Part shown: positions 4,291 through 62,041 of the stretch, in pieces
How positions within the stretch are numbered: position 1 is the first letter of the stretch
Layout: each line of letters starts with the position of its first letter
Assembly (NCBI GenBank): GCA_965248855.1
Contig: CBDFKQ010000004.1
Coordinates: 243,342 to 307,341, forward strand
Length of the DNA: 64,000 bases
Reading direction: 5' to 3'
Origin: Spirosomataceae bacterium
GTDB lineage: Bacteria; Bacteroidota; Bacteroidia; Cytophagales; 172606-1
Notes under the pieces: generated by a model
What the model saw: only the letters and a program-made list of their open reading frames with translations
Databases searched by the model: none
What the model was told of the DNA's origin: nothing
Position numbers and translations under genes: made by a program

Positions 4291-5118
4291 TTATTCTTTA
4301 TAGAATAGTTTTCCAAAATCGTTTGTTGTGTTTTCAAAACCGGAATATGATTGGCCTGTAAATCTTTTAAACTCTTTTATAAAATGTGACTGGTCGTAGT
4401 AGAAATCATAAAAATCGTTTTTCATGAATGATAATACATCATTATTGGCTACGGCATTATAATATTGCTTGAAACGGATAATGGTAGATAAATTTTTTGG
4501 ACTGACTCCCAACCTTTCTTCAAATTTCATATTCAGCCATCGGCTACTGTAACCGCTTTTCTTTTCTAGTTCTTTTATAGTTATTCTTCCCTTTGATGAA
4601 ATTATTTTTGATACACAATATTCAAAAATAGAATCCTCACCATGATTCATAAGTTGTTTAAGCAAAAACTGTTGTAAATAAGCAACTTTACCTTCAATGC
4701 TTTCAACGTTTGAAATTTGCTCTTCTAATTGATTGGCAATAATTCCTAAAATATCTGTAAGTGAATAAATTTGGTTTTTTAGGCTGTTTAATGGCAAACG
4801 AAAAAAACGATAAGCTCCTTGAGGATTAAACTCTGCACAAAGTGTACCTGTAGCAACATTTTTATCAACATCTAATATAACAGGCACATCAACCAATCCT
4901 GTTAATGTAATGCCCTGTTCTTTTGATGTAAATATTTTATCACCCATTGCAGCTACAATACCATTGCGAAAGGCTACTGTCAATTTAATATTTCCATTGG
5001 GCACAACCAACTTCAAATCGTCAATAGGTATTTTTCCGCTGCTTTCAAACACCCACATTTTTTCTATGTAACTTTTAAGCAAGGGATGTGGTTCGATATT
5101 TTGAAATCGCATTTGCAT
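4291..5118 (-). CDS. AraC-family transcriptional regulator
   Basis: C-terminal double HTH (ITIKELEKKSGYSSRWLNMKFEERLGVSPKNLSTIIRFKQ). Confidence 0.8.
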   Translation of the reverse strand: MQMRFQNIEPHPLLKSYIEKMWVFESSGKIPIDDLKLVVPNGNIKLTVAFRNGIVAAMGDKIFTSKEQGITLTGLVDVPVILDVDKNVATGTLCAEFNPQGAYRFFRLPLNSLKNQIYSLTDILGIIANQLEEQISNVESIEGKVAYLQQFLLKQLMNHGEDSIFEYCVSKIISSKGRITIKELEKKSGYSSRWLNMKFEERLGVSPKNLSTIIRFKQYYNAVANNDVLSFMKNDFYDFYYDQSHFIKEFKRFTGQSYSGFENTTNDFGKLFYKE

Positions 5119-5273: not shown

Positions 5274-5879
5274 TTAATGATTTTCTACCATTTCTTTTAA
5301 ATTTACAAATGTTTGGTATGGACCAATCGTGGCAGTATAATTTACCAGCCACGAAGGAAGAGTACCTCCCGGATTTACGCTTAAAGTATAATCAATTTTA
5401 ATATGATTGTTCGGCAAAGAATTTAATTTATATAATCCCAATGAATATGGCACTCTAATAATGTTTTTCTTATACGGAACAAGTTTTGGGAAACTTCTAA
5501 CTGTAATAATCGCTTTTTTACTTAAAGAGTCTTTCGCTACAGCTAATTCTACTGAGGCATCTCGGTTGCTTGCCGGCCAGGGTAAGGAAATTTCCGAATA
5601 AAAATATAATGTATCGGCATTTTTTTTATTAATTAAATAAGACACAGTGGTTTTATAAACCCAGTTTTTATGATTATCAACATCTTGTAATATTTTTATC
5701 AGTTTTTCTATAGATCCATTAAATTCGCAAATAACCCTTACTTGTTTATATCTTTCGCTATTTAGCATTCTCGTATATACCGAAATACCATTCTTCTCTT
5801 TTGCTAAATTCCAATTTTCCTGAGCATATATGATAAGAGGAATAAAAAATAAAAAAAATGTTAAAAGTAATCTTGTCAT
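5274..5879 (-). CDS. secreted START/SRPBCC-like lipid-binding protein
   Basis: Signal peptide (LLLTFFLFFIPLIIYAQ). The ~180-aa mature domain resembles START (WNLAKEKNGISVY, RDASVE, LPSWLVN). Confidence 0.55.
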   Translation of the reverse strand: MTRLLLTFFLFFIPLIIYAQENWNLAKEKNGISVYTRMLNSERYKQVRVICEFNGSIEKLIKILQDVDNHKNWVYKTTVSYLINKKNADTLYFYSEISLPWPASNRDASVELAVAKDSLSKKAIITVRSFPKLVPYKKNIIRVPYSLGLYKLNSLPNNHIKIDYTLSVNPGGTLPSWLVNYTATIGPYQTFVNLKEMVENH

Positions 5880-5990: not shown

Positions 5991-7268
5991 ATGGCATCAT
6001 CCATGAATAAGTCATTAATGGCATTGAAAACATTAAAAGCTTTACACAACATAGAAACAGTTATTGAAAACATTAAAAATAAACCACAGACATTTAATAG
6101 AAATATTAGTTTACCCGGAGAATTTATTGTTACTGAAGAAGGAATTAACAAAAGGCTCAAATTTTTGTACGAAGAAACGAAGAAAGAGCTTGCCTATGTT
6201 TCGGAAAAAAATACATTTAATGATTTTAATCGATTAGAAGGGAATATTGAAAATTATATTGGGATGACAATGGTTCCAACAGGAGTTATTGGTCCACTCA
6301 GGGTAACCGGTTCTGCTGCCAATGGTGATTTTTATATTCCATTAGCTACTACAGAAGGTGCACTTGTTGCTTCATACCAAAGGGGAGCTAAAGCTTGTTA
6401 TTTAGCAGGAGGTGCAAGCTCAGTTTGTTTAATGGAGGGTGTACAACGCTCTCCGGTTTTTAAATTTATTAATTTAGGGGAGCTGGGAACATTCCTAATT
6501 TGGATTTTAGGTCAGCTGGATAATTTTAAAAATATTACCGAGCAATCAAGTAATTATGCCAAGTTAATTGAAGTAAAACCAAATATTGAAGGCAACCAAC
6601 TTATAATAACTTTTGAATACCATACAGGCGATGCTGCAGGGCAGAATATGGTTACTTTTTGCACAGATGCTATCTGTAATTTCATTATTGAACACGCTCC
6701 TATAAAACCACAATTTTGGTCAATTGAAAGCAATTATTCAGGGGATAAAAAAGCCACTGCTCTTTCTTTTAGCAGCGTTAGAGGTAAAAAAGTTACTTCA
6801 GAAATTGTTTTATCATCTCAAATAGTTAGGGATGTATTAAAAACTACACCCTATGCCATGGCCGAATATTGGAAATTATCTACAGTTGGTACTGTTCAAA
6901 GTGGAGCTATTGGAGCTCAAGGTCATTTTGCAAATGGGCTTGCAGCTTTATTTTTGGCAACCGGTCAGGATGTGGCTTGTGTAGCAGAAGCGGCTGTAGG
7001 AATTACCAGAATGGAACTTACTTCAGATGAAAATTTATATGCATGCGTTACATTGCCAAGCCTGATTGTTGGAACTGTTGGAGGTGGTACAGGGCTGCCC
7101 ACTCAAAAAGAATGCCTTGAATTAATGGATTGTTATGGTAGTGGCAAAGCAAAGAAATTTGCTGAAATATGTGGAGCTTTAGTGCTTTCCGGAGAGCTTT
7201 CAATCGCCGCTGCACTATCTAATGGGCATTTTTCAGCCGCGCATAAAAAATTTGGTAGAAAGAATTAA
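5991..7268 (+). CDS. hydroxymethylglutaryl-CoA reductase, class I catalytic domain
   Basis: ENYIGMTMVPTGV, TTEGALVAS, GDAAGQNMV, GTVGGGT and the C-terminal GELSIAAALSNGHFSAAH with the catalytic His. Confidence 0.9.
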   Translation: MASSMNKSLMALKTLKALHNIETVIENIKNKPQTFNRNISLPGEFIVTEEGINKRLKFLYEETKKELAYVSEKNTFNDFNRLEGNIENYIGMTMVPTGVIGPLRVTGSAANGDFYIPLATTEGALVASYQRGAKACYLAGGASSVCLMEGVQRSPVFKFINLGELGTFLIWILGQLDNFKNITEQSSNYAKLIEVKPNIEGNQLIITFEYHTGDAAGQNMVTFCTDAICNFIIEHAPIKPQFWSIESNYSGDKKATALSFSSVRGKKVTSEIVLSSQIVRDVLKTTPYAMAEYWKLSTVGTVQSGAIGAQGHFANGLAALFLATGQDVACVAEAAVGITRMELTSDENLYACVTLPSLIVGTVGGGTGLPTQKECLELMDCYGSGKAKKFAEICGALVLSGELSIAAALSNGHFSAAHKKFGRKN

Positions 7269-7276
7269 ACTCAAAT

Positions 7277-8236
7277 ATGCTTTCAAATCAATTTAGTAAT
7301 ATAAAAGAAAATAATTCTTCCTTTCTAAAACGGTTTTATATCTATCAAAAAGAAAGGTTTTCATTTTTAGGCCATGGATTGATTGTAACTTCATTTAGCT
7401 TTTCTGCCATTTCTTACTCCAGAATATGCAGAGGTGCTACAGGATTTATCAATACAAATATTTTTATTGCCGGTATCTTTATTACAATATCTCTTTTTTT
7501 TTTAGTTAGGATATTTGATGAATTTAAAGATGCAGATGATGATGCTAAGTTTAGAAGTGATTTACCGGTTCCCAGAGGATTAATCTCTCTATTGGAATTG
7601 GGAAGCATTGCGGTAATAATTATAATATTTCAAATTATCGTAATTCTTCTTTTTTTTTCTCAGATGATAGTTTTCTACTTAATAGTTATGTTTTATTTAC
7701 TATTGATGGGAAAAGAATTTTTTATTCCGGATTGGCTAAAAAGACACCGGTTTTGGTATGTAACTTCTCATATGTTTATTATTCCCTTAGTAGATATGTA
7801 CGCAAGCGGCCTTGACTGGAAATTGAGTAATGTTAACCCTCCAAAAGGATTAATTTTCTTCTTTGCAGTTTCTTACATGAACGGAGTAGTATTAGAAATT
7901 GGAAGGAAGATACGTATTCCTCAAAATGAATCGGAAGGAGTTTTGACATATTCTGCACTTTTAGGTGTTAATAAAGCAACCTATCTGTGGATTTTTATTT
8001 TAATAATCACATTAATTTTAAGTATTATAGCAAGTGCATTTGCCGGATATGGTCGGATCATCTTTATTATACTTACCGGTTGTTTCTTTTTGTGCTCATT
8101 CCCGGCGTTTGCTTTCTTATTTAAAAAGTCTAAAAAACTATCCAAAACTATAGAATATGCTTCTGCACTTTGGACAATAGCCATGTACTTAACTTTAGGT
8201 GGAGGACCAATAATTTCAAAATTCTTTTTTAAATGA
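7277..8236 (+). CDS. UbiA-superfamily prenyltransferase-like membrane protein
   Basis: Multi-pass hydrophobic 319-aa protein with an Asp-rich motif (FDEFKDADDD). It starts 8 nt after the HMGR stop. Confidence 0.7.
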   Translation: MLSNQFSNIKENNSSFLKRFYIYQKERFSFLGHGLIVTSFSFSAISYSRICRGATGFINTNIFIAGIFITISLFFLVRIFDEFKDADDDAKFRSDLPVPRGLISLLELGSIAVIIIIFQIIVILLFFSQMIVFYLIVMFYLLLMGKEFFIPDWLKRHRFWYVTSHMFIIPLVDMYASGLDWKLSNVNPPKGLIFFFAVSYMNGVVLEIGRKIRIPQNESEGVLTYSALLGVNKATYLWIFILIITLILSIIASAFAGYGRIIFIILTGCFFLCSFPAFAFLFKKSKKLSKTIEYASALWTIAMYLTLGGGPIISKFFFK

Positions 8237-10848
8237 CATATCCAATTATTACAAGTCAAAAATCAATTAAGGATTTTAATATTGGGGGAAAGGCTAAAAA
8301 TCTTTTTCGTCTCATTGAATTAGGTTTTAACGTTCCAAAGTTTGTAGTTATTCCTCATGAAGTTTTAAATGAATTTTTACCTCAAAACATAGACGAACTC
8401 CATGAAAATGACATTATAATTTTTTTAAAAGAAATAGTTATACCGGAAGAAATTATAAATGAAATTCTTTCTTACTTTTCTCCTGATTCATATTTTGCTG
8501 TTCGCTCATCTGCCTCAGATGAAGATAATCTTAATTTTTCGTTCGCTGGCCAGTATGAAAGTTATTTGTTTGTTAATAAAGATCATCTGGCTGAGAAAAT
8601 TAAAAGTGTTTGGAGTTCTCTTTTTTTAGTAAGAGTAATTGAATATAGAAAAAACAATAATATTTCCGGTACTTCCAAAATGGCAGTTATTATTCAGGAA
8701 ATGATAAATGCTGATGTTTCGGGAGTCGCGTTCGGAATAAATCCCATCAATAAAAATCAAAATGAAAAATTAATTAACTCAGTGTATGGCTTGGGTGAAG
8801 GGCTTGTTTCAGGAGAACTGGATGCAGATATGTTTATTATAAGAAACTCTGATTCCGCAGTAAAACAAATCCATAATAAAACTCATAAAATTGTTTTTGA
8901 TTCAATAAAATGTTGGGGGGTCAGGAAAGTAGAAGTTAACAAAGAATTTCAAAATTTGCAATCCTTAACTGATACACAAATAAATGAACTAGAAGAAATT
9001 CTTGATAAGCTTAATATTGAATATCAAACGCCACAGGATATAGAATTTGCAATAAAAGAAAACACTATCTTTTTAACACAAACCAGACCTATTACTACAT
9101 TAAATCAAACAAGCAAAAACCCTCAGGAGTCATATATAGTTTGGGATAACAGTAATATTATAGAATCTTATCCCGGAGTTACAACCCCTCTTACCTTTTC
9201 TTTTATAAGTCAGTCTTATAAAGGTGCATACAAACTATTTTGCGAATACATGGGTGTTAGTCCTAAAGTAATAAAAAATAACGAAAGGGTTTTTGCAAAT
9301 ACATTAGGTTTTATAAACGGAAGGGTTTACTATAATCTTAAGAGTTGGTATTACATGCTTGCCATGGTTCCGGGTTATAGTATCAATGCGCGGTTTATGG
9401 AAAATATGATGGGTGTAAAGGAACGTTTTGATGTTCCTGAAAGCTACAGATTATCGCACGGTAAAGCATTTTGGCAAATCTTTATAATGGCTATAAGGAT
9501 GTATTTTCGTCTTCTTTTGCTTCCTAAAAAAAAGAAAGAATTTTTTATATTGTTGAATGACACAATTAAGAAATACAAAAAAATAAATTTCAGAGAAAAA
9601 AATGCTTACGAATTAATGGATTTATATTATTCATTTGAATCCACATTGTTAAACCAATGGAAAGCCCCTTTAATAAATGATTTTTTTGCCATGATTGGCT
9701 ATGGAAGGTTGCAAAAGCTTTGTCAAAAGTATTTAATAGGTAATAATCCCAATATTCATAATGATTTATTGTGTGGCAGCGGTGATATAATTTCAACCCA
9801 ACCCATTCATAGATCTATAGCAATTGCATCAAAAATATCGAAAGAAAAGAATCTAAAGGAGTTGTTTATCAAACAAGATGAAATATTTATATGGAAAAAT
9901 TTAAATGAAAATAAATCTGAAGAAAGCAAATCATTAAAGTTAGAAATCGATAATTATATTGAAGACTTTGGTGAACGCTGCATAGGTGAACTTAAATTGG
10001 AAACCGTTTCATATACACAAGATCCTACCAAATTTATTAAAATATTAAAAGCTTATGTTGTTTCTGAAATTACTTTAAACAGTACTTCCGGAAAAATAGA
10101 AGAAGAAATAAGAATTACCGCCTTAAAAGAAGTAAATGAGACCTTGAAAGGAAATTGGTACAAAAAATTTAAAATGAAACGGGCTATTTCCCGGGCCAGA
10201 GAGTTGGTAAGTGCTAGAGAAAATCTTAGATATGAACGCACAAGGGCCTTTGGTATAGTTCGTGAAATATTTTCCGGTATTGGTTATCAATTTTATTCCA
10301 ATAATATTATTAATGCGCCAAGTGACGTATTTTATTTAACTAAAGATGAAATTTTTTCTTTTATAGAAGGCACAAGTGTGTCTCAAAATATTAGGGAACT
10401 TATTGGGTTTCGTAAACATGAATTTGAAACATACAGAAAACAAAACGTTCCTTCAGAGCGCTTTTCTACATCCGGTATAGTTTATCATGACAATGATTTT
10501 TTTAATATTAATAAATTACAAAAATTTGATGGCGATCTGAATGGAATTGGTTGTTGCCCGGGTATTGTTAGGGCTAAAGTTCAAGTAATTTTTGATCCTA
10601 TAAATGCTCTGCCATTAAATGGAGATATTTTAATCACTTCAAGTACTGACCCCGGCTGGGTTACTCTTTTTCCGAGTGCATCGGGGATAATTACTGAAAG
10701 GGGGAGTGTTTTAAGCCATTCTGCAATTGTTTCCAGAGAAATGGGTAAGCCATGCATTGTTGGAGTGCAGGGATTATTAAAAACTTTAAAAACAGGAGAC
10801 GAAATAATTATGAATGGGAGTACAGGTGCTATTACATTGATAAAGTGA
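8233..10848 (+). CDS. PEP-utilising-enzyme family phosphotransferase (PPDK_N ATP-grasp plus C-terminal swivel-His domain; rifampin-phosphotransferase-like architecture)
   Basis: N-terminal GGKAKNL and AVRSSASDEDNLNFSFAGQYES. C-terminal TSSTDPGWVTLFPSASGIITERGSVLSHSAIVSREMGKPCIVG. No PEP/pyruvate TIM-barrel region. ATGA overlap with the UbiA gene. Confidence 0.8.
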   Translation: MTYPIITSQKSIKDFNIGGKAKNLFRLIELGFNVPKFVVIPHEVLNEFLPQNIDELHENDIIIFLKEIVIPEEIINEILSYFSPDSYFAVRSSASDEDNLNFSFAGQYESYLFVNKDHLAEKIKSVWSSLFLVRVIEYRKNNNISGTSKMAVIIQEMINADVSGVAFGINPINKNQNEKLINSVYGLGEGLVSGELDADMFIIRNSDSAVKQIHNKTHKIVFDSIKCWGVRKVEVNKEFQNLQSLTDTQINELEEILDKLNIEYQTPQDIEFAIKENTIFLTQTRPITTLNQTSKNPQESYIVWDNSNIIESYPGVTTPLTFSFISQSYKGAYKLFCEYMGVSPKVIKNNERVFANTLGFINGRVYYNLKSWYYMLAMVPGYSINARFMENMMGVKERFDVPESYRLSHGKAFWQIFIMAIRMYFRLLLLPKKKKEFFILLNDTIKKYKKINFREKNAYELMDLYYSFESTLLNQWKAPLINDFFAMIGYGRLQKLCQKYLIGNNPNIHNDLLCGSGDIISTQPIHRSIAIASKISKEKNLKELFIKQDEIFIWKNLNENKSEESKSLKLEIDNYIEDFGERCIGELKLETVSYTQDPTKFIKILKAYVVSEITLNSTSGKIEEEIRITALKEVNETLKGNWYKKFKMKRAISRARELVSARENLRYERTRAFGIVREIFSGIGYQFYSNNIINAPSDVFYLTKDEIFSFIEGTSVSQNIRELIGFRKHEFETYRKQNVPSERFSTSGIVYHDNDFFNINKLQKFDGDLNGIGCCPGIVRAKVQVIFDPINALPLNGDILITSSTDPGWVTLFPSASGIITERGSVLSHSAIVSREMGKPCIVGVQGLLKTLKTGDEIIMNGSTGAITLIK

Positions 10849-10850
10849 AT

Positions 10851-11942
10851 ATGAATAAATCAATTTCCACAAAAGTAAATTTTAATTTTATTCGATATGC
10901 AAACTGTTGGGAGGATGCTGATATTTTATTAAAAGGATTGTCTTTAAAAGCAGGTTCGAAAATACTTTCTATTGGATCAGGAGGTGACAACTGTTTTGCT
11001 TTGCTTACTACTGATCCTCAAATGGTGGTAGCAATTGATATTAATAAAACTCAGTTGAGTTTAATAGAGTTAAAAAAGGTTGCAATAAAAAATTTAACTT
11101 ACGAGGAAACATTAAAATTTCTGGGGTTTCTACCATCCACAAATAGAAAGGAAGTATTTAATAAAATCAAATCAGAAATGAGCCTTTCGGCTAATAGTTA
11201 TTGGGAAGCTAATACTAACATCATAGAAAAAGGAATAATATATTCCGGCAAATTTGAAAAATATTTTATATTATTTAGCAGTAAAATTTTACCTTGGATT
11301 CACTCAGGTAAAAAGATCGAAAGTATTTTCACAAAAAAAACAAAGGAAGAACAAGAAAGCTATTATAACCAAATATGGAACTCGTGGAAATGGAAACTTC
11401 TATTTAAAATCTTTTTTAGTAAATATATAATGGGTAGATACGGTCGCGACCCAAAGTTTTTGAAAGAGGTAAATGTACCAGTTGCTAAAACAATTTATAA
11501 CAAAGCGGCTATACATTTGCAGTCATTAGAAGCGCAGCATAACTTTATTCTTCATTTTTGCCTTAAGGGAAATTTTGGAGAAAATCTTCCCTTTTATATG
11601 CGAAAAGAAAATTTTGACTTTGTAAAAGCGAATATTGAGAAACTTATATTAATGGAAGGATTGGCTCAACATGCTATTGATGTTCATGGTAAATTTAATG
11701 CAATGAACCTTTCTAATATTTTTGAATACATGGATACCGATACATTCGAAACTACATCTAAAGAATTGCTAAAAGGCTTGGAGGATAAAGCGAAAATATG
11801 TTATTGGAATTTAATGGTTTCAAGAAAGATTTCAAAAACTTTTCCCGAAGAAGTAGAGTACCAACAAAAAATTTCAAAAGACTTAACTGATAAGGATAAA
11901 GGTTTTTTTTATAGTGAATTTATAGTCGAAAATAAAAAATGA
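10851..11942 (+). CDS. DUF3419 / BtaA-like putative SAM-dependent 3-amino-3-carboxypropyl transferase
   Basis: IRYANCWEDADILLKGL and GSGGDNCFALL, as in the BtaA family. I chose the ATG at 10851, 2 nt after the upstream stop, over the track start at 10752. Confidence 0.65.
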   Translation: MNKSISTKVNFNFIRYANCWEDADILLKGLSLKAGSKILSIGSGGDNCFALLTTDPQMVVAIDINKTQLSLIELKKVAIKNLTYEETLKFLGFLPSTNRKEVFNKIKSEMSLSANSYWEANTNIIEKGIIYSGKFEKYFILFSSKILPWIHSGKKIESIFTKKTKEEQESYYNQIWNSWKWKLLFKIFFSKYIMGRYGRDPKFLKEVNVPVAKTIYNKAAIHLQSLEAQHNFILHFCLKGNFGENLPFYMRKENFDFVKANIEKLILMEGLAQHAIDVHGKFNAMNLSNIFEYMDTDTFETTSKELLKGLEDKAKICYWNLMVSRKISKTFPEEVEYQQKISKDLTDKDKGFFYSEFIVENKK

Positions 11943-12601
11943 ATAAAGAATACATTAATACCATCTTATTAGCCATTTTATTTTTATTGCTTTTTGGGAT
12001 CGCTGAATTACTTTATTATAAATTCCATGTAAAAGCTGATACGACAAGAAAGGTAGTTCATTTAGGTACCGGACTTCTTTGTTTATTATTTCCTTCCATG
12101 CTTCATAGCCATTGGTTTGTTTTTTTTCTTTGTTTCGGTTTCGCAGTAATCCTTTTTGCCAGTTTAAAGTTTAATTTATTAAAATCAATAAATGCTATAG
12201 AAAGGGTTTCTTATGGTAGCTTACTTTATCCATTAATTATATATATCTGTTTTTTAATTTACAATTACTTTAATAATAATTACATCTATTTTTATCTTCC
12301 ATTATTAATCATGTCAATTTGCGATCCTTTTGCTGCTATAATTGGAAAGAGATGGCCTTATGGAAAGTTTTATATTAGAAAAGATAACAAGACAATTATG
12401 GGTTCTGCTGCCTTTTTTATTTCCAGTTCTATTATAACGTTGATACTTTTTTATTTTTTATTGCCGAATAGCGATAAATTTTTAATTACTTTTTCAGTCG
12501 CATTATCAGCCACCTTGGCTGAAGCTTTATTTGTAAAAGGGTTCGACAATTTTACAATTCCTTTGAGTGTAATAATGATTTTGATTGTGTTACATGTATG
12601 A
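11939..12601 (+). CDS. CTP-dependent polyprenol/phytol kinase-like membrane protein (dolichol kinase / VTE5 / CdsA superfamily)
   Basis: Multi-pass 220-aa protein with RKVVHLGTG and CDPFAAIIGKRWPYG motifs. ATGA overlap with the upstream gene. Confidence 0.55.
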   Translation: MNKEYINTILLAILFLLLFGIAELLYYKFHVKADTTRKVVHLGTGLLCLLFPSMLHSHWFVFFLCFGFAVILFASLKFNLLKSINAIERVSYGSLLYPLIIYICFLIYNYFNNNYIYFYLPLLIMSICDPFAAIIGKRWPYGKFYIRKDNKTIMGSAAFFISSSIITLILFYFLLPNSDKFLITFSVALSATLAEALFVKGFDNFTIPLSVIMILIVLHV

Positions 12602-13601
12602 AATAATAAAAACAAGGCCTGGAGATACTAATTTTAATTTATTTGAGGATTTTCCAAATGAAATTTATCCTGAAGGCAGTCTGTATTATCAACAATCAAG
12701 GCATATTAATGAAATTTACTTAGAAAATTGTTTTCTTCTTTTAGAGAACGGAAAGGTAAAAAGCCGTGCAAGTATGTATTGCAATCCATACATGTATTAT
12801 CAAAATAAAAAAACCGTTACAATTGGGCATTATGAATCGTCAGAAGATAAAAATTGTTCAAAAAAACTAATCTCCCATATTATTTTGGAAGCCAAAAAAT
12901 TAGAAGCCGAATTTTTAATAGGCCCTATGAATGGAAGCACTTGGGATGAATATCGTTTTAGCCTTAATCACCAATATCCTACATTTTTTTTAGAACCTTA
13001 CCACCAATTGTATTACAATCAGCACTTTTTAAATGCTGATTTTGAAATTATAGCCAAGTATTATTCAAGCATTGAAACTAACCTAATTTTTAATAGCGCA
13101 TTTGTATTAGAAAGAGAAAATGAGCTTCGAAAAATCGGTGTAAATTTCAGGAACATTAATTTGGAAGAATTTGAAAAAGAACTGGAAAAAATATATGAGT
13201 TTAATTCTGTTTCTTTTAAATCAAACTTCTTGTTTACACCTATTAAAAAAGAAGATTTTCTTAAAAAGTATACTGAAACTAAAAAATTTATAAATCCACA
13301 ATTTGTAATGCTTGCTGAAGATAAAGAAGAAAACCTTATAGGATATTTTTTCTGTATACACGATTTTTTTAATAAAAATTCAAAAGCATTAATTGCTAAA
13401 ACAGTAGCCAGGCATCCTGATAAAACGTGGAGTGGTGTTGGGCATGTGTTAGGTAATATTATTGCTGCAAGGGCATTAAAAGATGGTTACCAAGCTATTA
13501 TTCATCCTTTTATGCACGAGGAAGGAACATCAAAGAAAATGTCAAATAACTTTTCCGGCAAATCATACAAAAACTATGTACTGTATGGAAGAAGTATATA
13601 A
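12594..13601 (+). CDS. hypothetical protein with a weak GNAT-fold acyltransferase-like C-terminus
   Basis: The ATG at 12594 overlaps the upstream stop (ATGTATGA). C-terminal KTWSGVGHVLGNIIA resembles GNAT motif A. No firm family assignment. Confidence 0.4.
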   Translation: MYEIIKTRPGDTNFNLFEDFPNEIYPEGSLYYQQSRHINEIYLENCFLLLENGKVKSRASMYCNPYMYYQNKKTVTIGHYESSEDKNCSKKLISHIILEAKKLEAEFLIGPMNGSTWDEYRFSLNHQYPTFFLEPYHQLYYNQHFLNADFEIIAKYYSSIETNLIFNSAFVLERENELRKIGVNFRNINLEEFEKELEKIYEFNSVSFKSNFLFTPIKKEDFLKKYTETKKFINPQFVMLAEDKEENLIGYFFCIHDFFNKNSKALIAKTVARHPDKTWSGVGHVLGNIIAARALKDGYQAIIHPFMHEEGTSKKMSNNFSGKSYKNYVLYGRSI

Positions 13602-15132
13602 CGATGCTTTTAATATTACAGATCTTTTTTTTAATACTGCAAAAAAATATCCTAATAAAACAGCAGTAATTTTTAAAAATAAAAACATTTCCTTTGGCGA
13701 ACTTGAAGTTAAAATTGAAAATACAGCGCAATATTTTTTAAACAAAGGAATAGGAAAAAACGACAGGGTTTTAGTTTTTGTGCCTATGAGTATTGATTTG
13801 TACCGAATTGTATTAGCATTATTTAAAATCGGAGCAATAGCTGTTTTTCTTGACGAATGGGTTAATAAAAACAGGATGGAAGAGTGCTGCAAAATAGCGC
13901 TTTGTAAGGCAATTATAACTACATTAAAAGCAAGAATATTCATTTTTTTTTCAAAGGAATTGAAAAAAATACCTATAAGATTGGGAGTTGGATTTAACGA
14001 AAAAAATGCAAGAAAAAATTTACCGGAAACATTTTACGATGATATTGCTCTTATTACTTTTACCACCGGCTCAACAGGTATTCCTAAAGCTTCTATTCGC
14101 ACTCACCGACTTTTATTTAACCAATTTATAGCACTCGAAGAGAAATTGGAATACAGAGATGATGATATCTCTATGACAGTACTGCCAATAGTATTATTAA
14201 TTAATTTGGCAGTTGGTGCTACCTCTGTAATTGCTGATTTTAAGAGCTCCAAACCCGATAGTTTACTACCTGAAAAAATAATTCGACAGTTAAAAAGACA
14301 TTCAGTCAATACAATAATCGGATCTCCTTTTTTTATTAAAAAACTGGCAGAATATATAATTAAAGAAAAAAAATTTCTTCCTAATATTAAAAATTTTTTT
14401 ACGGGAGGAGCCCCTGTTTTTCCTTCGGAAGCAAAAATTTATAATGATGCCTTTCCTGAAACAAAAATAGAAATTATTTATGGATCTACGGAGGCTGAGC
14501 CAATTAGTAGCATTTCTGCTAACGATTTGTTGAACTTAAAAAATGACATTTTAAATGGTTTAAATGTTGGAAAAGTATCAGCGTATGCAGAAGTTAAAAT
14601 CATCAAAATTGACGATAAAAATATTTTTTTAAATTCAGAAAATGATCTAACCGGAATTGTCTTACCTCATAATACAATTGGTGAAATAATTGTGAAGGGT
14701 AAACATGTTCTTCGTGATTACCTCAATAATGAAGAAGCCTTTAAAAGAAACAAAATTTTGGTGGGTAATGAATTCTGGCACCGAACCGGTGATAGTGGTT
14801 ATATTACTGAAAGTGGAAACCTTTTTTTAATGGGAAGGTGCAATTCATTAATTGAAAAGAATAAAAAAATACTTTATCCTTTTGTTTATGAAAATTATTT
14901 TCAGTTAAATGAACATATAGAAATAGGGACGATTATCAATACAAATAATAAAGTTTCCGCTGTTGTTCAACTTCGAGATAAATCAAAAGAATTCCTCGTC
15001 AAAGATTTTATAAAAGAAGTAGAACCATTAATTGATCGAATTATTTTTATAAATAAAATCCCCCGTGATCCTCGTCATAATTCTAAAATTGATTATCAAA
15101 AATTAAGTAGTTTGCTTGAAAAATATAAATGA
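13585..15132 (+). CDS. AMP-dependent synthetase/ligase (adenylate-forming enzyme)
   Basis: TFTTGSTGIPKA, YGSTEAEP, TGDSGY and the C-terminal PRDPRHNSKIDYQKL with the A10 Lys. The start is at ATG 13585 or 13576 and overlaps the upstream gene. Confidence 0.85.
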   Translation: MEEVYNDAFNITDLFFNTAKKYPNKTAVIFKNKNISFGELEVKIENTAQYFLNKGIGKNDRVLVFVPMSIDLYRIVLALFKIGAIAVFLDEWVNKNRMEECCKIALCKAIITTLKARIFIFFSKELKKIPIRLGVGFNEKNARKNLPETFYDDIALITFTTGSTGIPKASIRTHRLLFNQFIALEEKLEYRDDDISMTVLPIVLLINLAVGATSVIADFKSSKPDSLLPEKIIRQLKRHSVNTIIGSPFFIKKLAEYIIKEKKFLPNIKNFFTGGAPVFPSEAKIYNDAFPETKIEIIYGSTEAEPISSISANDLLNLKNDILNGLNVGKVSAYAEVKIIKIDDKNIFLNSENDLTGIVLPHNTIGEIIVKGKHVLRDYLNNEEAFKRNKILVGNEFWHRTGDSGYITESGNLFLMGRCNSLIEKNKKILYPFVYENYFQLNEHIEIGTIINTNNKVSAVVQLRDKSKEFLVKDFIKEVEPLIDRIIFINKIPRDPRHNSKIDYQKLSSLLEKYK

Positions 15133-15801
15133 ATGAGCTCCCATGATAATAAATTATAGATGCGTTCAATTAAACATATGATTCATTTATGATTATCTTT
15201 TATCAAGAATTTAATCCAAACGAAATATATTTAGCCCCATTTTTTACATACACCTATATTTTTTCTCCTGCGTGTATAATAATAACCGGGAAAGTATTTG
15301 GAATCCATTCATTATGAAAAAATAAAAACAAAAAAGTTTAATATCGATTTTAACATATTTAAATTATTTATTGAATTTTAATTGCAAATAGAAAAATTGG
15401 GGAATTAAAACAAAGATTAGTTTATCTAAATATTAAAAAAGGTAATTTTAATATTAGGAAGGATCTCTATTGAAAATAAAATCTTTTGGTTCCGGATGAG
15501 TAGTGTGGAAGTATGCCAATTATTTTTATTAAAGATTTCTTACTCCTCTTTATATGTCTAAATCCTCTAAGTACCTCAAAATAAATTAGAATATTCTATG
15601 GCGATTATAATCTAAAGGTCAATTAAATGAAGTTTTTATATTCTTTTTTATAATAAAGCAAAAGAGTATATTAGTTTTAGAAAAATTTATTAAATAAAAT
15701 TTTAGTTTTAGTTTAACAAAATAATGTTATGAGGAACGATTTTAACGTAAATTAAAAAAAAAATATATTCGCTTATTTTACCAAGGCTGCATTTTGATTA
15801 T

Positions 15802-17847
15802 ATGGATACTTTAAAATTAGATTTTGAACAGGCAAAAGCAAGACATTTATTATTTAAAACAAGATTAAGGTCAATTTTATTTGGAATAGAAATAGATGAA
15901 ACTCCCGTTGTATCGCATTATGAATGCGCTGTTGGTAAATGGATTTATGGCCACGCATTAAAAGAATACGGACACATCCCCGAAATGAAAGAACTTGAAA
16001 GGGTTCATGCCAACATTCATTTATCTGCACGTGAATTAATAACTTTATTCAGGCAGGGTGATGTTGAAGAAGCCCATGCCGGCCTGGCAAAGATGGAAAT
16101 GATTGCCGATGATTTAATCGACTTGTTAAATATTATTGAAAAGAAATTAAAAGAAAGTGATCAAAAACCTCAAAATTACTCTAACAAAGAGGAATTATTA
16201 AGTATAAATTACAATGAATTGCTGGAGCTGCACGGCACAATTCAACAACTGGACGCTAAAATCAAGCAACAGGCAAATGAATTATATCAGGCTAAATCAT
16301 ATACTGATTTGCGTTTGAAAACACTGTTTAAACAGGCACCTATTGCGCTTGCTATTTTTAAAGGCAGTGATTATATGGTTGAAATGGCAAATGATTTAAT
16401 GCTGTCATACTGGGGTAGAAAAGAAGAGGAAGTATTAAACAAACCGGTTTTTGAAGCAATATCAGAAGTAAGAGATCAGGGTTTTGAATCAATTCTTGAT
16501 CAAGTTTTTAAAACCGGAAAATCATATATTTCTACGGAAAGTACAGCAACTCTGTGGCATAATGATAAATTTATTACTATCCATGTAACATTAAATTTAG
16601 AAGCCTTAAGAGAAGCTGATGGTACCATTTCAGGAATATTAAGCCTTGTGCATGATATTTCTGAACAGGTGGAATCAAAAAAGAAAATAGTAGAGGCTGA
16701 AGAAAGGACAAGGATTGCAGTTGAAGCTGCAATGCTTGGTACTTTTGATGTTGATATGGTTTTTGATAAAATTATAAGTTCTAAGCGCTTCAGTGAAATT
16801 TTTGGATTTAAAGAAACAAATATTTCTCATGAAGAATTATTAAATGTTGTTCATCCTGAAGATTTAAGTATAAGAAACGCTGCCCACGAACTTGCATTAA
16901 CTACAGGAATTTTAAGCTACGAAACAAGACTTTTATGGAAAGATGGAACAATTCATTGGGTGAAAGTTCAGGGAAAAATGTTTTTTGACAAAAAGAAAAA
17001 TCCGACACGGCTTATAGGGGCAGTGATGGATATTACCGAACAAAAAGCGTTTATGGAAGAGCTTGAAAATAAAGTATTTGAACGCACCCAGGAATTACAA
17101 TATGCCAATAAGGAGCTTAAAAATATAAATCAGGAGCTTGCCTCTTTCGCCTATATTTCAAGTCATGATTTGCAGGAACCATTACGAAAAATACAAACAT
17201 TCGGGGGACGGATTTTTAAATCCGATTATGATAATCTTTCTGAAAATGGAAAGGATTACTTAAACAGAATGCAAAATTCAGCCGGCAGAATGCAAACGCT
17301 AATTGATGATTTGCTTACTTATTCAAGGACGAGTGCCGTCGAAAGAGTTTTCTATAAAACAGACTTAAATGTTTTATTCACCGAAGTTAAAAATGAATTT
17401 AAAGAGAAAATAGAAGAGAAAATAGCTGAGATTGAAATTTCCGAGATGCCCGAAATAAAATCTATCGCATTTCAAATCAGGCAATTATTTATAAACCTGA
17501 TTTCAAATGCCATTAAATTTGCCAAACGAAATGAAACAGCAAAGATTATTATTAAATCCCAAATTTTAAAAGGCTCAGAAATTAATATTCCTGATGTTTT
17601 AATTAATGAAAATTATATTCGCATCAGTATTTCTGATAATGGAATTGGTTTTGAAGCTCATCACAGTAAAAAGATTTTTGAAGTTTTTCAAAGGCTGCAT
17701 GCAAAAGGCGATTATGCCGGTACCGGTATCGGGTTGGCTATTTGTAAAAAGATAGTTGATAATCACAGAGGATTTATAGAGGCCAATGGAGAATTGAATA
17801 ACGGAGCTACTTTTAACATTTATCTTCCAATAAATGCGGATAATTAA
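15802..17847 (+). CDS. sensor histidine kinase with an N-terminal CZB (chemoreceptor zinc-binding) domain and PAS domains
   Basis: CZB motif SHYECAVGKWIYGH...RVHANIH. Two PAS-like regions. H-box FAYISSHDLQEPLRKI, N-box LISNAIKFA, and G-boxes DNGIGF and GTGIGLAICKKIV. Confidence 0.85.
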   Translation: MDTLKLDFEQAKARHLLFKTRLRSILFGIEIDETPVVSHYECAVGKWIYGHALKEYGHIPEMKELERVHANIHLSARELITLFRQGDVEEAHAGLAKMEMIADDLIDLLNIIEKKLKESDQKPQNYSNKEELLSINYNELLELHGTIQQLDAKIKQQANELYQAKSYTDLRLKTLFKQAPIALAIFKGSDYMVEMANDLMLSYWGRKEEEVLNKPVFEAISEVRDQGFESILDQVFKTGKSYISTESTATLWHNDKFITIHVTLNLEALREADGTISGILSLVHDISEQVESKKKIVEAEERTRIAVEAAMLGTFDVDMVFDKIISSKRFSEIFGFKETNISHEELLNVVHPEDLSIRNAAHELALTTGILSYETRLLWKDGTIHWVKVQGKMFFDKKKNPTRLIGAVMDITEQKAFMEELENKVFERTQELQYANKELKNINQELASFAYISSHDLQEPLRKIQTFGGRIFKSDYDNLSENGKDYLNRMQNSAGRMQTLIDDLLTYSRTSAVERVFYKTDLNVLFTEVKNEFKEKIEEKIAEIEISEMPEIKSIAFQIRQLFINLISNAIKFAKRNETAKIIIKSQILKGSEINIPDVLINENYIRISISDNGIGFEAHHSKKIFEVFQRLHAKGDYAGTGIGLAICKKIVDNHRGFIEANGELNNGATFNIYLPINADN

Positions 17848-60693: not shown

Positions 60694-61115
60694 ATGGAAA
60701 AGTATTCAAAAGTTTATCCAAGTAAATGGCAGAGTCAATATAGTAAAGAATTTAAGCAGTCGGTATGCAAGGAATATCTGCTTGGCAATGATTCCAGAAC
60801 CGGTATAGAAAAAAAGTATCATTTAGGTCATGGTCGTATATTAAATTGGCTTAAAGAGGATGGTTATGTTGAATTACCCTGCTCTTTAAATAAATCTGTT
60901 TATATTGTAGGTCTTGATAATTATAATCCAATGTCTGCAGATAATCCTCAACTTCCATCTCAAACTACAACAGGTTTAAATGAGGTTTGCGAAGATCAAT
61001 CAGAAATTCTGCGCCTTAAAAAGAACTTTTAGAAGCTAAGATAAAAGCCGAAGGCTTTGAAAGGATGATAGAAATAGCCGAAGAGCAATTTAAAATACTC
61101 ATCAAAAAAAAGTAA
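60694..61115 (+). CDS. IS3 transposase OrfA (HTH), reading frame apparently interrupted by a 1-nt indel
   Basis: The HTH-like N-terminus stops at 61030-61032. The -1 frame continues ...LLEAKIKAEGFERMIEIAEEQFKILIKKK*, the expected leucine-zipper tail. The switch point is an A5G run at 61018-61023. Confidence 0.6.
61104..61112 (+). promoter_or_regulatory. programmed -1 ribosomal frameshift site (A8G) joining orfA and orfB
   Basis: The A AAA AAG heptamer lies within an A8 run. The orfA-tail frame stops at 61113-61115 while the -1 frame (orfB) is open through the run. Confidence 0.6.
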
Positions 61116-61123
61116 AATACCGG

Positions 61124-62041
61124 GTAATCCATGAGTTAAAGGACAAATACAGCGTAAACCTTACCTGTATTTGTCGGTTATTTGGTATCACCCGTCAGGC
61201 TTATTACCAACACTTTTGGCATGAAGATGAGGTGGGATTAGAAGAGGAGATGATTATAAAACAAGTGGTGATGATCAGGCAAAACCACAGAGCAATGGGT
61301 ACAAGAAAACTATTTGAGATCCTGCAACCTTTTTTGATGGAACATCAGATTAAAATAGGTCGTGATGCTTTATTTGATTTATTGGCCCGTCACCAATTAT
61401 TAGTTAAAAAACGAAAAAGAAAAATAAGTACCACCATGAGTTACCACCGGTTCCATAAATGGCCTAATCTGATTAAAGACTTTATTCCGTCTGCACCCAA
61501 TGAACTTTATGTGAGTGATATAACATATTGGAAAATAGAAACAGGATATGTTTACATCAGTTTTATTACAGATGCTTATTCTCATAAAATCGTTGGTTAT
61601 CGGGTAGCAGAAACTCTGGAAGCAGTAGAAAGCTTAAGCGCATTAGAAATGGCACTTGAATCGTTTCCGGCTAAAATAAAAGAAAAACTTATTCACCATT
61701 CGGACAGAGGGGTACAATATTGCAGTGATGGATATGTAAAGTTATTGCAGGACAATCACATCCGGATCAGCATGACACAAACCGGCGATCCTCTAGAAAA
61801 CGCAATAGCCGAGCGGGTAAACGGTATATTAAAAGAAGAGTATCTGTCGCATTTTAAAGTAAGTACCCTTGAAGAAGCGAAAAAAGTATTGGAAGAAAAC
61901 GTAAAACTTTATAATAGGGAGCGACCACATATGAGTATAGGCAACCTTACACCTTCTTTTATTCATGAAAACAACGTTCCAACAGAAAGGCTGTGGAAAA
62001 ATTATTATCAAAAGAGAAAAGAAGAAGTAATTACATGCTGA
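61124..62041 (+). CDS. IS3 transposase OrfB (DDE integrase/rve domain)
   Basis: VIHELKDKYSVNLTCICRLFGITRQAYY (HTH_21-like), then DDE residues in YVSDITYW, HHSDRGVQY and NAIAERVNG. It is expressed as an OrfAB fusion, so it has no independent ATG. Confidence 0.9.
   Translation, partial: VIHELKDKYSVNLTCICRLFGITRQAYYQHFWHEDEVGLEEEMIIKQVVMIRQNHRAMGTRKLFEILQPFLMEHQIKIGRDALFDLLARHQLLVKKRKRKISTTMSYHRFHKWPNLIKDFIPSAPNELYVSDITYWKIETGYVYISFITDAYSHKIVGYRVAETLEAVESLSALEMALESFPAKIKEKLIHHSDRGVQYCSDGYVKLLQDNHIRISMTQTGDPLENAIAERVNGILKEEYLSHFKVSTLEEAKKVLEENVKLYNRERPHMSIGNLTPSFIHENNVPTERLWKNYYQKRKEEVITC

Follow-up and report, generated by a model that had tools for sequence, protein, structure and literature searches.

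A 64,000-nucleotide (nt) stretch of a Spirosomataceae bacterium genome (contig CBDFKQ010000004.1, positions 243,342 to 307,341; GenBank assembly GCA_965248855.1), which we refer to as the window, carries seven consecutive genes, named g1 to g7 here. All lie on the + strand between window positions 5991 and 15132, with spacings of -26 to +8 nt. An earlier note on this DNA had described seven same-strand open reading frames (ORFs) joined by short gaps and overlaps, and our coordinates and spacings, the latter read with the most plausible start codons, agree with that layout. The genes and their predicted products are as follows.

g1, 5991-7268, + strand: class I HMG-CoA reductase (HMGR), soluble, 425 amino acids; 8-nt gap to g2
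g2, 7277-8236, + strand: putative divergent UbiA-superfamily membrane protein, 319 amino acids; ATGA overlap with g3
g3, 8233-10848, + strand: predicted Rph/PigC-type dikinase without the phosphoenolpyruvate (PEP)/pyruvate barrel, 871 amino acids; 2-nt gap to g4, taking the ATG at 10851 as the g4 start
g4, 10851-11942 (longest ORF from 10752), + strand: DUF3419 protein of the BtaA family with an S-adenosylmethionine (SAM)-binding fold, 363 amino acids; ATGA overlap with g5
g5, 11939-12601, + strand: integral membrane protein, distantly CTP_transf_1 / COG0170 polyprenol (phytol/dolichol) kinase-like, 220 amino acids; 8-nt ATGTATGA overlap with g6
g6, 12594-13601, + strand: predicted tandem GNAT acyltransferase, 335 amino acids; 17-nt overlap with g7, or 26 nt with the alternative g7 start
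g7, 13585-15132 (alternative start 13576), + strand: adenylate-forming (ANL) enzyme, 515 amino acids

Seven terminator-like hairpins were counted between positions 5000 and 16500, compared with 5.4 ± 2.0 in shuffled sequences, so the hairpins give no evidence of internal termination and are neutral on internal signals. Promoter-like and terminator-like matches around the operon were no commoner than in shuffled sequence. A megablast search of the whole block against plasmids returned no match and thus no sign of a plasmid-borne island.

Conservation of the block and its variants

Relatives of the block were sought in species-representative genomes (one genome per species) with an alignment of g6 homologs. 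The scan returned 223 stretches among 185,579 genomes, and the best 80 of the 223 were fetched and compared by tblastn with the seven window proteins. Gene order was collinear in all 80 genome loci, which come from other species, at 35 to 77% amino acid identity. The complete set of seven genes in the same order was present in 48 of the 80, and most of the remaining loci were cut by contig ends. HMGR was found upstream of g2 in 48 of the 53 loci with room for it there. Median amino acid identity ranged from 46% (g6) to 68% (g1), and the projected junction gaps had medians of -4 to +8 nt. A similar picture emerged from metagenomes searched with an alignment of g5: of the 37 examined loci with a length of 6 kb or more, 24 contained the complete block, and in 4 others it was truncated by a contig end. 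The earlier note had allowed for a fortuitous juxtaposition if gene order varied among relatives; order was instead kept throughout the 80 loci. The seven genes form one conserved, tightly packed, operon-like block, not a chance juxtaposition.

Carriers include Chitinophagales, Cytophagales (many Dyadobacter, Spirosomataceae, and Marivirga), Saprospiraceae, Flavobacteriales (Crocinitomicaceae and Fluviicola), and Parapedobacter. Several Dyadobacter species, Parapedobacter, and Botryobacter are cultured carriers; culturable examples are Dyadobacter fermentans, D. soli, and Parapedobacter defluvii. The whole block is also present in a Saprospiraceae metagenome-assembled genome (MAG; GCA_016706925.1, locus L088:11281-19131), where g2, g3, g4, g6, and g7 are each spread over at least two frames; the cause could be a fault in the assembly or decay of the cluster.

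Many loci hold additional genes within the block. A membrane-anchored protein related to SRPBCC/Polyketide_cyc2 is encoded between g6 and g7 in 21 of 76 loci. A pair of genes matching CTP_transf_1 and CDP-OH_P_transf follows g1 in eight loci (L046, L053, L059, L085, L087, L103, L110, and L135), and the same pair follows g3 in reverse order in five others (L055, L057, L061, L076, and L139). The CDP-alcohol phosphatidyltransferases from all positions are homologous to one another (35 to 65% identity). Because the pair proteins score far below the NCBIfam cutoffs for housekeeping CdsA, PgsA, and PssA, they appear to be dedicated paralogs. No such cytidylyltransferase and CDP-alcohol transferase pair was found in the operon of the window. 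The L055 contig is labeled as the gammaproteobacterium Hydrocarboniphaga daqingensis; its accessory proteins are 92 to 93% identical to those of L057, labeled a Flavobacterium MAG, and the contig is probably misbinned or mislabeled.

Other insertions were seen in fewer loci. A toxin-antitoxin pair (HTH_3 and HipA) separates g3 and g4 in L053:6635-8148, L059:6624-8137, L085:16237-17753, and L087:19205-20718, and all four of these loci also hold the CDP-alcohol transferase/CdsA-like pair. In a single locus (L071:5254-6087), a fatty acid desaturase-family gene lies between g3 and g4.

Two shorter operon types share genes with the block. Type B consists of HMGR, a CDP-alcohol transferase, a CdsA-like protein, and g5, without g2, g3, g4, g6, or g7. 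It was found in L099, L119, L121, L122, L126, L128, and L129, flanked by unrelated housekeeping genes, and a variant (L084:10001-13100) has HMGR, g5, a CarS-like protein, and a CDP-alcohol transferase. Type C, found in L137:1253-9591 and L147, consists of tightly overlapping genes that encode a distant Rph-like dikinase, a 213-amino-acid protein, a Methyltransf_23 protein, a PlsC-type acyltransferase, and a fatty acid-type desaturase; it ends with HMGR and then the genes for a CdsA-like protein and a homolog of g5. Across the three operon types, g5 was always found with HMGR.

Neighboring genes were annotated around the operon in the window, in L001, L003, and L084 to L088, and in the L137 operon. 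Within this set, we saw no gene for prenyl-diphosphate synthase, mevalonate kinase, or the decarboxylase, and for this reason a role of HMGR in isoprenoid supply is an assumption. Genes for polyketide synthases (PKS), nonribosomal peptide synthetases (NRPS), cyclases, or transporters were not conserved with the block in the annotated loci, and neither were genes for glycosyltransferases or flippases.

Family assignments of the seven products

The g1 protein matches Pfam HMG-CoA_red at 2.5e-115 over profile positions 2 to 368 of 368, and its best solved relative is the archaeal HMGR of Methanothermococcus (6hr7, 283 bits). It falls under the TIGR00533 cutoff (326 versus 442 bits). Aligned to human HMGR and 6hr7, it keeps ENYIG, RG, SNYSGDKK, RGKK, HFAN, GQD, GTVGGGT, and GHFSAAH. 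The catalytic and HMG-binding set of the human enzyme, which we take to be Glu559, Arg590, Ser684, Asp690-Lys691-Lys692, Lys735, Asn755, Asp767, and His866, is kept in full. The class I HMGR assignment made in the earlier note is thereby upheld, and since all catalytic and substrate-binding residues are conserved, we take g1 as a genuine, presumably mevalonate-forming HMG-CoA reductase. For the same reason, it is unlikely that g1 reduces a different acyl-CoA made by g7. Identity to g1 is 52 to 77% in 50 related loci, the median of 68% being the highest of the block, and all five high-scoring HMGR homologs with a retrievable contig adjoin cluster genes (the partners in L088 were located by tblastn).

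The cluster HMGR is gone from L001, L016, L045, L056, L066, and L077. In its place, Dyadobacter sp. NIV53 (complete genome, CP081299.1; L001:3072-4648) has an IS3-family transposase, and HMGR is reduced to its last 40 codons (65% identity), immediately 5' of the UbiA-like gene. These losses suggest that the cluster copy is dispensable in such genomes and not strictly required. The mevalonate pathway has been reported for Flavobacteriaceae and other non-Bacteroidales Bacteroidota (PMC4026382); we found no equivalent report in the literature for Cytophagales or Chitinophagales.

Members of the UbiA superfamily are multi-pass membrane proteins that match PF01040 and carry two Mg-binding motifs, NDxxDxxxD and DxxxD. 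In an alignment of 28 sequences, the g2 family has the motif RIFDEFKDA(E/D)DD and invariant residues D81, E82, K84, D85, D89, D173, and D180; the first acidic motif thus reads D-E-x-K-D-x-x-x-D, and the second is atypical (D173-x6-D180). Precomputed PF01040 hits are present among g2 homologs. The g2 protein itself reaches 30.6 bits against Pfam UbiA, under the gathering cutoff of 34.2, and a g2-family profile detected no UbiA enzyme among solved structures. The prenyltransferase assignment of the earlier note therefore stands in part: the Asp-rich motif and the homolog hits agree with it, and the subthreshold score and the structure search do not. Because the profile found no solved UbiA enzyme, we place g2, from its sequence, in a putative deep branch of the superfamily. 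Comparison with models of digeranylgeranylglyceryl phosphate (DGGGP) synthase gave nothing above noise (22 bits to PRK12884).

The g3 protein matches PPDK_N (1e-64, residues 17 to 297) and PEP-utilizers (1e-24, residues 796 to 865), with nothing after residue 871, and its homologs additionally match Rph_4th. An ATP-grasp domain and a swivel-His domain without the PEP/pyruvate barrel were what the earlier note had read from the sequence; Pfam recovers both domains, and the barrel is absent. The best solved relatives, 5fbs and 5hv1, are deposited as "phosphoenolpyruvate synthase," and we take them to be the Listeria rifampin phosphotransferase. In an alignment to 5fbs, the His in SVLSHSAIVSRE falls on position 825, presumably the catalytic His825. 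Against equivalog models, g3 scored 289 bits for Rph (cutoff, 999) and 353 bits for PigC (cutoff, 1300); the RedH model gave 308 bits. Since it lies below all equivalog cutoffs, g3 is classified by these scores as a member of the Rph/PigC-type dikinase family and not as an ortholog of Rph or PigC.

The DUF3419 match of g4 is essentially full length (2e-62, profile positions 6 to 384 of 385), as expected if it is the BtaA-like protein that the earlier note had proposed. BtaA is the only characterized member type of DUF3419 (PMC6642084), and by analogy g4 is presumed to catalyze aminocarboxypropyl transfer. Searches against solved structures found no relative. We found no BtaB-type N-methyltransferase in the window operon and only one methyltransferase among the genome loci examined. 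In that locus (L037:5815-9264), a Methyltransf_25/23 SAM methyltransferase directly follows the DUF3419 gene and is followed by DUF4337 and prolyl oligopeptidase genes and then g5; it might be a BtaB-like partner or merely part of an insertion.

Neither g5 nor g6 has a match in Pfam or NCBIfam. Five of 30 g5 homologs match CTP_transf_1 (PF01148) weakly (best E-value, 0.001), and source annotations name homologs phytol kinase or dolichol kinase (both used by the Joint Genome Institute) or phosphatidate cytidylyltransferase. A search of solved structures by sequence returned nothing useful. The structure model of g5 (predicted local distance difference test score [pLDDT], 91.4) gave one meaningful Foldseek match, a weak one to the CDP-diacylglycerol synthase TmCdsA (4q2e; E, 0.01; template modeling [TM] score, 0.38). 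The VTE5/dolichol kinase-like label given to g5 in the earlier note thus finds an echo in its homologs but not in a domain match of its own, and the model and the homologs tie g5 weakly to CTP_transf_1 and the polyprenol kinases. The possibility that g5 duplicates one of the accessory enzymes was rejected, since hhalign gave probabilities of 4% against the CdsA-like and 0.2% against the CarS-like protein.

The g6 model (pLDDT, 89.7) has whole-length Foldseek matches to tandem GNATs (E, ~1e-12; TM score, 0.5 to 0.6), among them VipF, MAB_4324, GlmA, MshD, and the clavulanate tandem GNAT, and some g6 homologs match PF00583. The earlier note had seen a weak GNAT-like region at the C terminus; the model instead predicts GNAT folds along the entire chain. 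Coenzyme A (CoA) binding by g6 is predicted from its membership among tandem GNATs. The family comprises at least 204 clusters, all from Bacteroidota where named.

The g7 protein matches AMP-binding (PF00501) at 7e-45 over positions 1 to 384 of 384 and has the core motifs of an adenylate-forming enzyme, as had been noted earlier: a TSGTTG-like TFTTGSTGIPK, YGSTE, and a C-terminal NSKIDY. Among NCBIfam models, it comes nearest to PRK09274 ("fatty acid CoA ligase family"), with 347 bits against a cutoff of 478; OleC-type models come next (~180 bits). Its solved relatives are distant.

Candidate products of the operon

In the full-text literature, with subscription-only papers outside coverage, we found neither the operon nor its short relatives described. 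Matches were confined to unrelated clusters (ebo/thallusin, lipocone, and prodiginine), in keeping with the earlier statement that no characterized pathway combines these families. We rate the block as known families in an undescribed combination and as a lipid or secondary-metabolite biosynthetic operon. It does not hold the defining gene set of any system with which we compared it.

One comparison is with the archaeal-type ether-lipid head group pathway (DGGGP synthase, CarS, and CDP-alcohol transferases) and its homologs among FCB-group (Fibrobacteres-Chlorobi-Bacteroidetes) bacteria (PMC7852524). Both are mevalonate linked, and both have a UbiA-superfamily enzyme, putative in the case of g2, and, in variant loci of the operon family, CarS/CdsA-like proteins and a CDP-alcohol phosphatidyltransferase. 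Unlike that pathway, the window has no cytidylyltransferase or CDP-alcohol transferase, g2 does not resemble DGGGP synthase above noise, and archaea have no counterpart of the BtaA-like, GNAT, and ligase genes. Geranylgeranylglyceryl phosphate synthase (PcrB family) was not seen among the annotated neighbors of a handful of loci, other loci not having been scanned for it. The BtaA/BtaB pathway for diacylglyceryl trimethylhomoserine (DGTS) in Rhodobacter sphaeroides and algae shares with the operon a full-length DUF3419 protein (PMC6642084) and a membrane-lipid context. The presumed chemistry is also common to both: a lipid hydroxyl receives the aminocarboxypropyl group of SAM, and the resulting head group contains no phosphorus. 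Where the DGTS pathway has BtaB, however, the operon has a tandem GNAT and an acyl-activating enzyme, and the HMGR, UbiA-like, and polyprenol kinase-like partners suggest that the lipid acceptor of g4 is probably not diacylglycerol.

Plants and cyanobacteria salvage phytol through the phytol kinase VTE5, VTE6, and the homogentisate phytyltransferase VTE2. By analogy, g5, g3, and g2 could together convert a free prenol to a donor of prenyl groups and also carry out the transfer, but g5 is distant from the kinase family, g3 is unrelated to VTE6, and no pathway for an aromatic acceptor is present. Rph and PigC/RedH/HapC share with g3 a three-part architecture of ATP-grasp, substrate-binding, and swivel His domains together with the catalytic His, and the PEP/pyruvate barrel is missing from all of them; g3 differs in its far lower equivalog scores and in its position in a lipid-type operon beside a UbiA-like gene. 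The ebo operon (eboA-F, thallusin) of Bacteroidota and cyanobacteria is likewise conserved, it is centered on a UbiA-family gene, and its function was long unassigned. Next to the UbiA-family EboC, its gene content is entirely unlike that of the operon: its products include a TatD hydrolase, a sugar-phosphate cyclase, a TIM-barrel protein, and a phosphodiesterase (PMC9235831). Genes for HMGR, a dikinase, DUF3419, a GNAT, or a ligase are missing from it. The eboA, B, D, E, and F families were not found among the seven genes or their window neighbors.

We tentatively propose, with confidence somewhat short of even, that the operon makes a membrane-bound, isoprenoid-linked polar (amino)lipid. From the family assignments and gene associations described above, we infer every substrate, product, and order of steps in the following scheme. 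A mevalonate-derived prenyl diphosphate would serve g2 in forming a lipid alcohol, and a lipid hydroxyl would be phosphorylated by g5 (CTP dependent), by g3 (ATP to AMP and Pi via phospho-His), or by both. The 3-amino-3-carboxypropyl group of SAM could then be placed on a lipid hydroxyl by g4, much as BtaA does with diacylglycerol, and the resulting head group would be a homoserine ether that lacks phosphorus and has a free amine. The carboxylic acid activated by g7 would be used, as a thioester, by g6 to N-acylate this amine, and this N-acylation would occupy the slot of BtaB N-methylation in betaine-lipid synthesis. Where CdsA/CarS-like proteins and a CDP-alcohol phosphatidyltransferase are encoded, the phosphorylated lipid may be CDP activated and given a phosphodiester head group.

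A membrane lipid with a mevalonate-derived hydrophobic part is the most economical explanation that we can offer, since HMGR and g5 are constant, partners of the kind that CDP-activate a lipid phosphate and swap CMP for an alcohol recur, and g4 belongs to the BtaA family, for which the one known activity is the addition of a homoserine-type head group to a lipid hydroxyl. The lipid part of the earlier note's isoprenoid-based polar lipid is strengthened by the CdsA/CarS-like, CDP-alcohol phosphatidyltransferase, desaturase, PlsC, and SRPBCC genes of related loci, and the recurrence of HMGR with g5 in two shorter operon types supports an isoprenoid-linked polar-lipid pathway. The isoprenoid part is not the sole reading of the data. 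Several findings weigh against our proposal: the subthreshold UbiA score of g2 and the failure of its family profile to find a solved UbiA enzyme, the weak link between g5 and the kinases, the destruction of the cluster HMGR by an insertion sequence (IS) element in a cultured Dyadobacter and its absence from 5 of 53 loci, and the lack of other mevalonate-pathway or prenyl-diphosphate synthase genes among the annotated neighbors. In addition, aminocarboxypropyl transfer by g4 is presumed from membership in the BtaA family, and the product of g7 could be an acyl-AMP or a β-lactone instead of a CoA thioester.

A broader proposal, which is possible but which we regard as doubtful, is that HMGR and g5 define a modular operon family of Bacteroidota, with three architectures, for a new class of mevalonate- or prenol-based membrane lipid. 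The long form would yield an N-acylated, phosphorus-free homoserine ether and the short forms a CDP-activated phosphodiester, and such a lipid system would be distinct from both fatty-acyl glycerolipids and archaeal diether lipids.

We weighed these proposals against four others. HMGR is the sole mevalonate-pathway gene in the three architectures, no prenyl-diphosphate synthase accompanies it, and g1 keeps all the residues of a genuine HMG-CoA reductase, all of which would fit a role for mevalonate itself as a building block, with g7 activating its carboxylate and g6 passing the (anhydro)mevalonyl group on to an amine such as one supplied by g4. Fungal siderophore synthesis offers a precedent for a ligase and a GNAT working beside a mevalonate source: SidI is a mevalonyl-CoA ligase, and SidF is a GNAT-type transacylase. 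In the short operons, the 5-hydroxyl of mevalonate could be the acceptor of the CDP-alcohol phosphatidyltransferase, which would give a mevalonate-bearing head group. We consider this improbable for the long and the short operons alike: it leaves unexplained the UbiA-like g2 and the polyprenol kinase-like g5, the most constant partner of HMGR, the 50 best fold matches of g6 did not include SidF, and 5 of 53 clusters that are otherwise complete lack HMGR. A prenylated small molecule, such as a meroterpenoid signal or antibiotic, has a somewhat better but still low likelihood as an alternative to a bulk membrane lipid. Here, g7, g6, and g4 would build a polar scaffold, g3 would phospho-activate it in the manner of PigC, and g2 would prenylate it in the manner of EboC, the UbiA-family enzyme that farnesylates a quinoline in the ebo/thallusin pathway of Bacteroidota (bioRxiv 10.64898/2026.05.21.724671; PMC9235831). 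The kinship of g3 to the PigC/RedH condensing enzymes and the rifamycin phosphotransferase, the patchy spread of the block (223 of 185,579 species-representative genomes), and the SRPBCC/polyketide cyclase-like accessory gene of some loci are consistent with such a product. The recurrent accessory genes, however, encode membrane enzymes of the phospholipid type (CdsA/CarS-like, CDP-alcohol phosphatidyltransferase, PlsC, and desaturase), and no PKS, NRPS, cyclase, or transporter gene is conserved with the block.

The operon could also serve a housekeeping polyprenyl-phosphate carrier, modified or recycled for the cell envelope (undecaprenol kinase-type salvage plus decoration) with HMGR setting the flux. 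The resemblance of g5 to CTP-dependent polyprenol kinases, the rank of HMGR as the most conserved gene of the block, and the occurrence of the mevalonate pathway in Bacteroidota other than Bacteroidales, for instance Flavobacteriaceae (PMC4026382), speak for it, but we assign it a small probability: only a minority of Bacteroidota have the block, the block tolerates IS and toxin-antitoxin insertions and frameshifts, and glycosyltransferase or flippase genes are not conserved alongside it. A fortuitous juxtaposition of a housekeeping HMGR with unrelated genes that share no single pathway is very improbable. The loss of HMGR from six loci speaks for it, but HMGR is directly upstream of g2 in 48 of 53 loci from several orders, the five high-scoring HMGR homologs all lie beside cluster genes, and HMGR and g5 occur together in two further operon types.

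If the operon does make an isoprenoid-anchored amino- or phospholipid, bacteria would gain a new class of lipid, BtaA-type chemistry would gain a new use, and functions would be assigned to large "hypothetical" families (the tandem GNAT, the g5 membrane protein, and the deep UbiA branch). It would also bear on the "lipid divide" by linking mevalonate synthesis to CarS/CdsA-like proteins and CDP-alcohol transferases in Bacteroidota. "Unidentified aminolipids" are often listed where Bacteroidota genera such as Dyadobacter are described taxonomically, and the lipid proposed here might account for some of them. The cultured carriers make the question directly testable.

Neighboring genes in the window

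A secreted protein is encoded divergently from the operon.

START-like secreted protein, 5274-5879, - strand: divergent from the operon; Pfam START, 7e-8

The earlier note had taken this gene, together with the AraC regulator and AHSA1/SRPBCC neighbors, as fitting a lipid theme. That argument is weak, because the START-like gene occupies the same divergent position (68% identity) only in the two closest relatives, L101 and L157, and the AraC and AHSA1/SRPBCC neighbors have no match in any related locus. The START-like gene is absent from the 80 genome loci and is probably a lineage-specific neighbor, not a core part of the system. We also asked whether the START-like and AHSA1 proteins of the window correspond to the in-block SRPBCC gene of other loci, and this was rejected, as they show no similarity to it.

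Farther upstream (930-2637, + strand; ~3 kb from the operon), the window has a PhyH-family (phytanoyl-CoA dioxygenase-like) gene and a short-chain dehydrogenase gene. On the 3' side, g7 is followed by a 670-nt noncoding stretch (15133-15801) with a GC content of ~24% and then by a histidine kinase gene (15802-17847) whose product has an N-terminal CZB zinc-binding domain and PAS domains. Near the far end of the window (60694-62041), two adjacent ORFs are IS3-type transposase-like, the second having an HHSDRGxQY integrase-like segment read from its translation.

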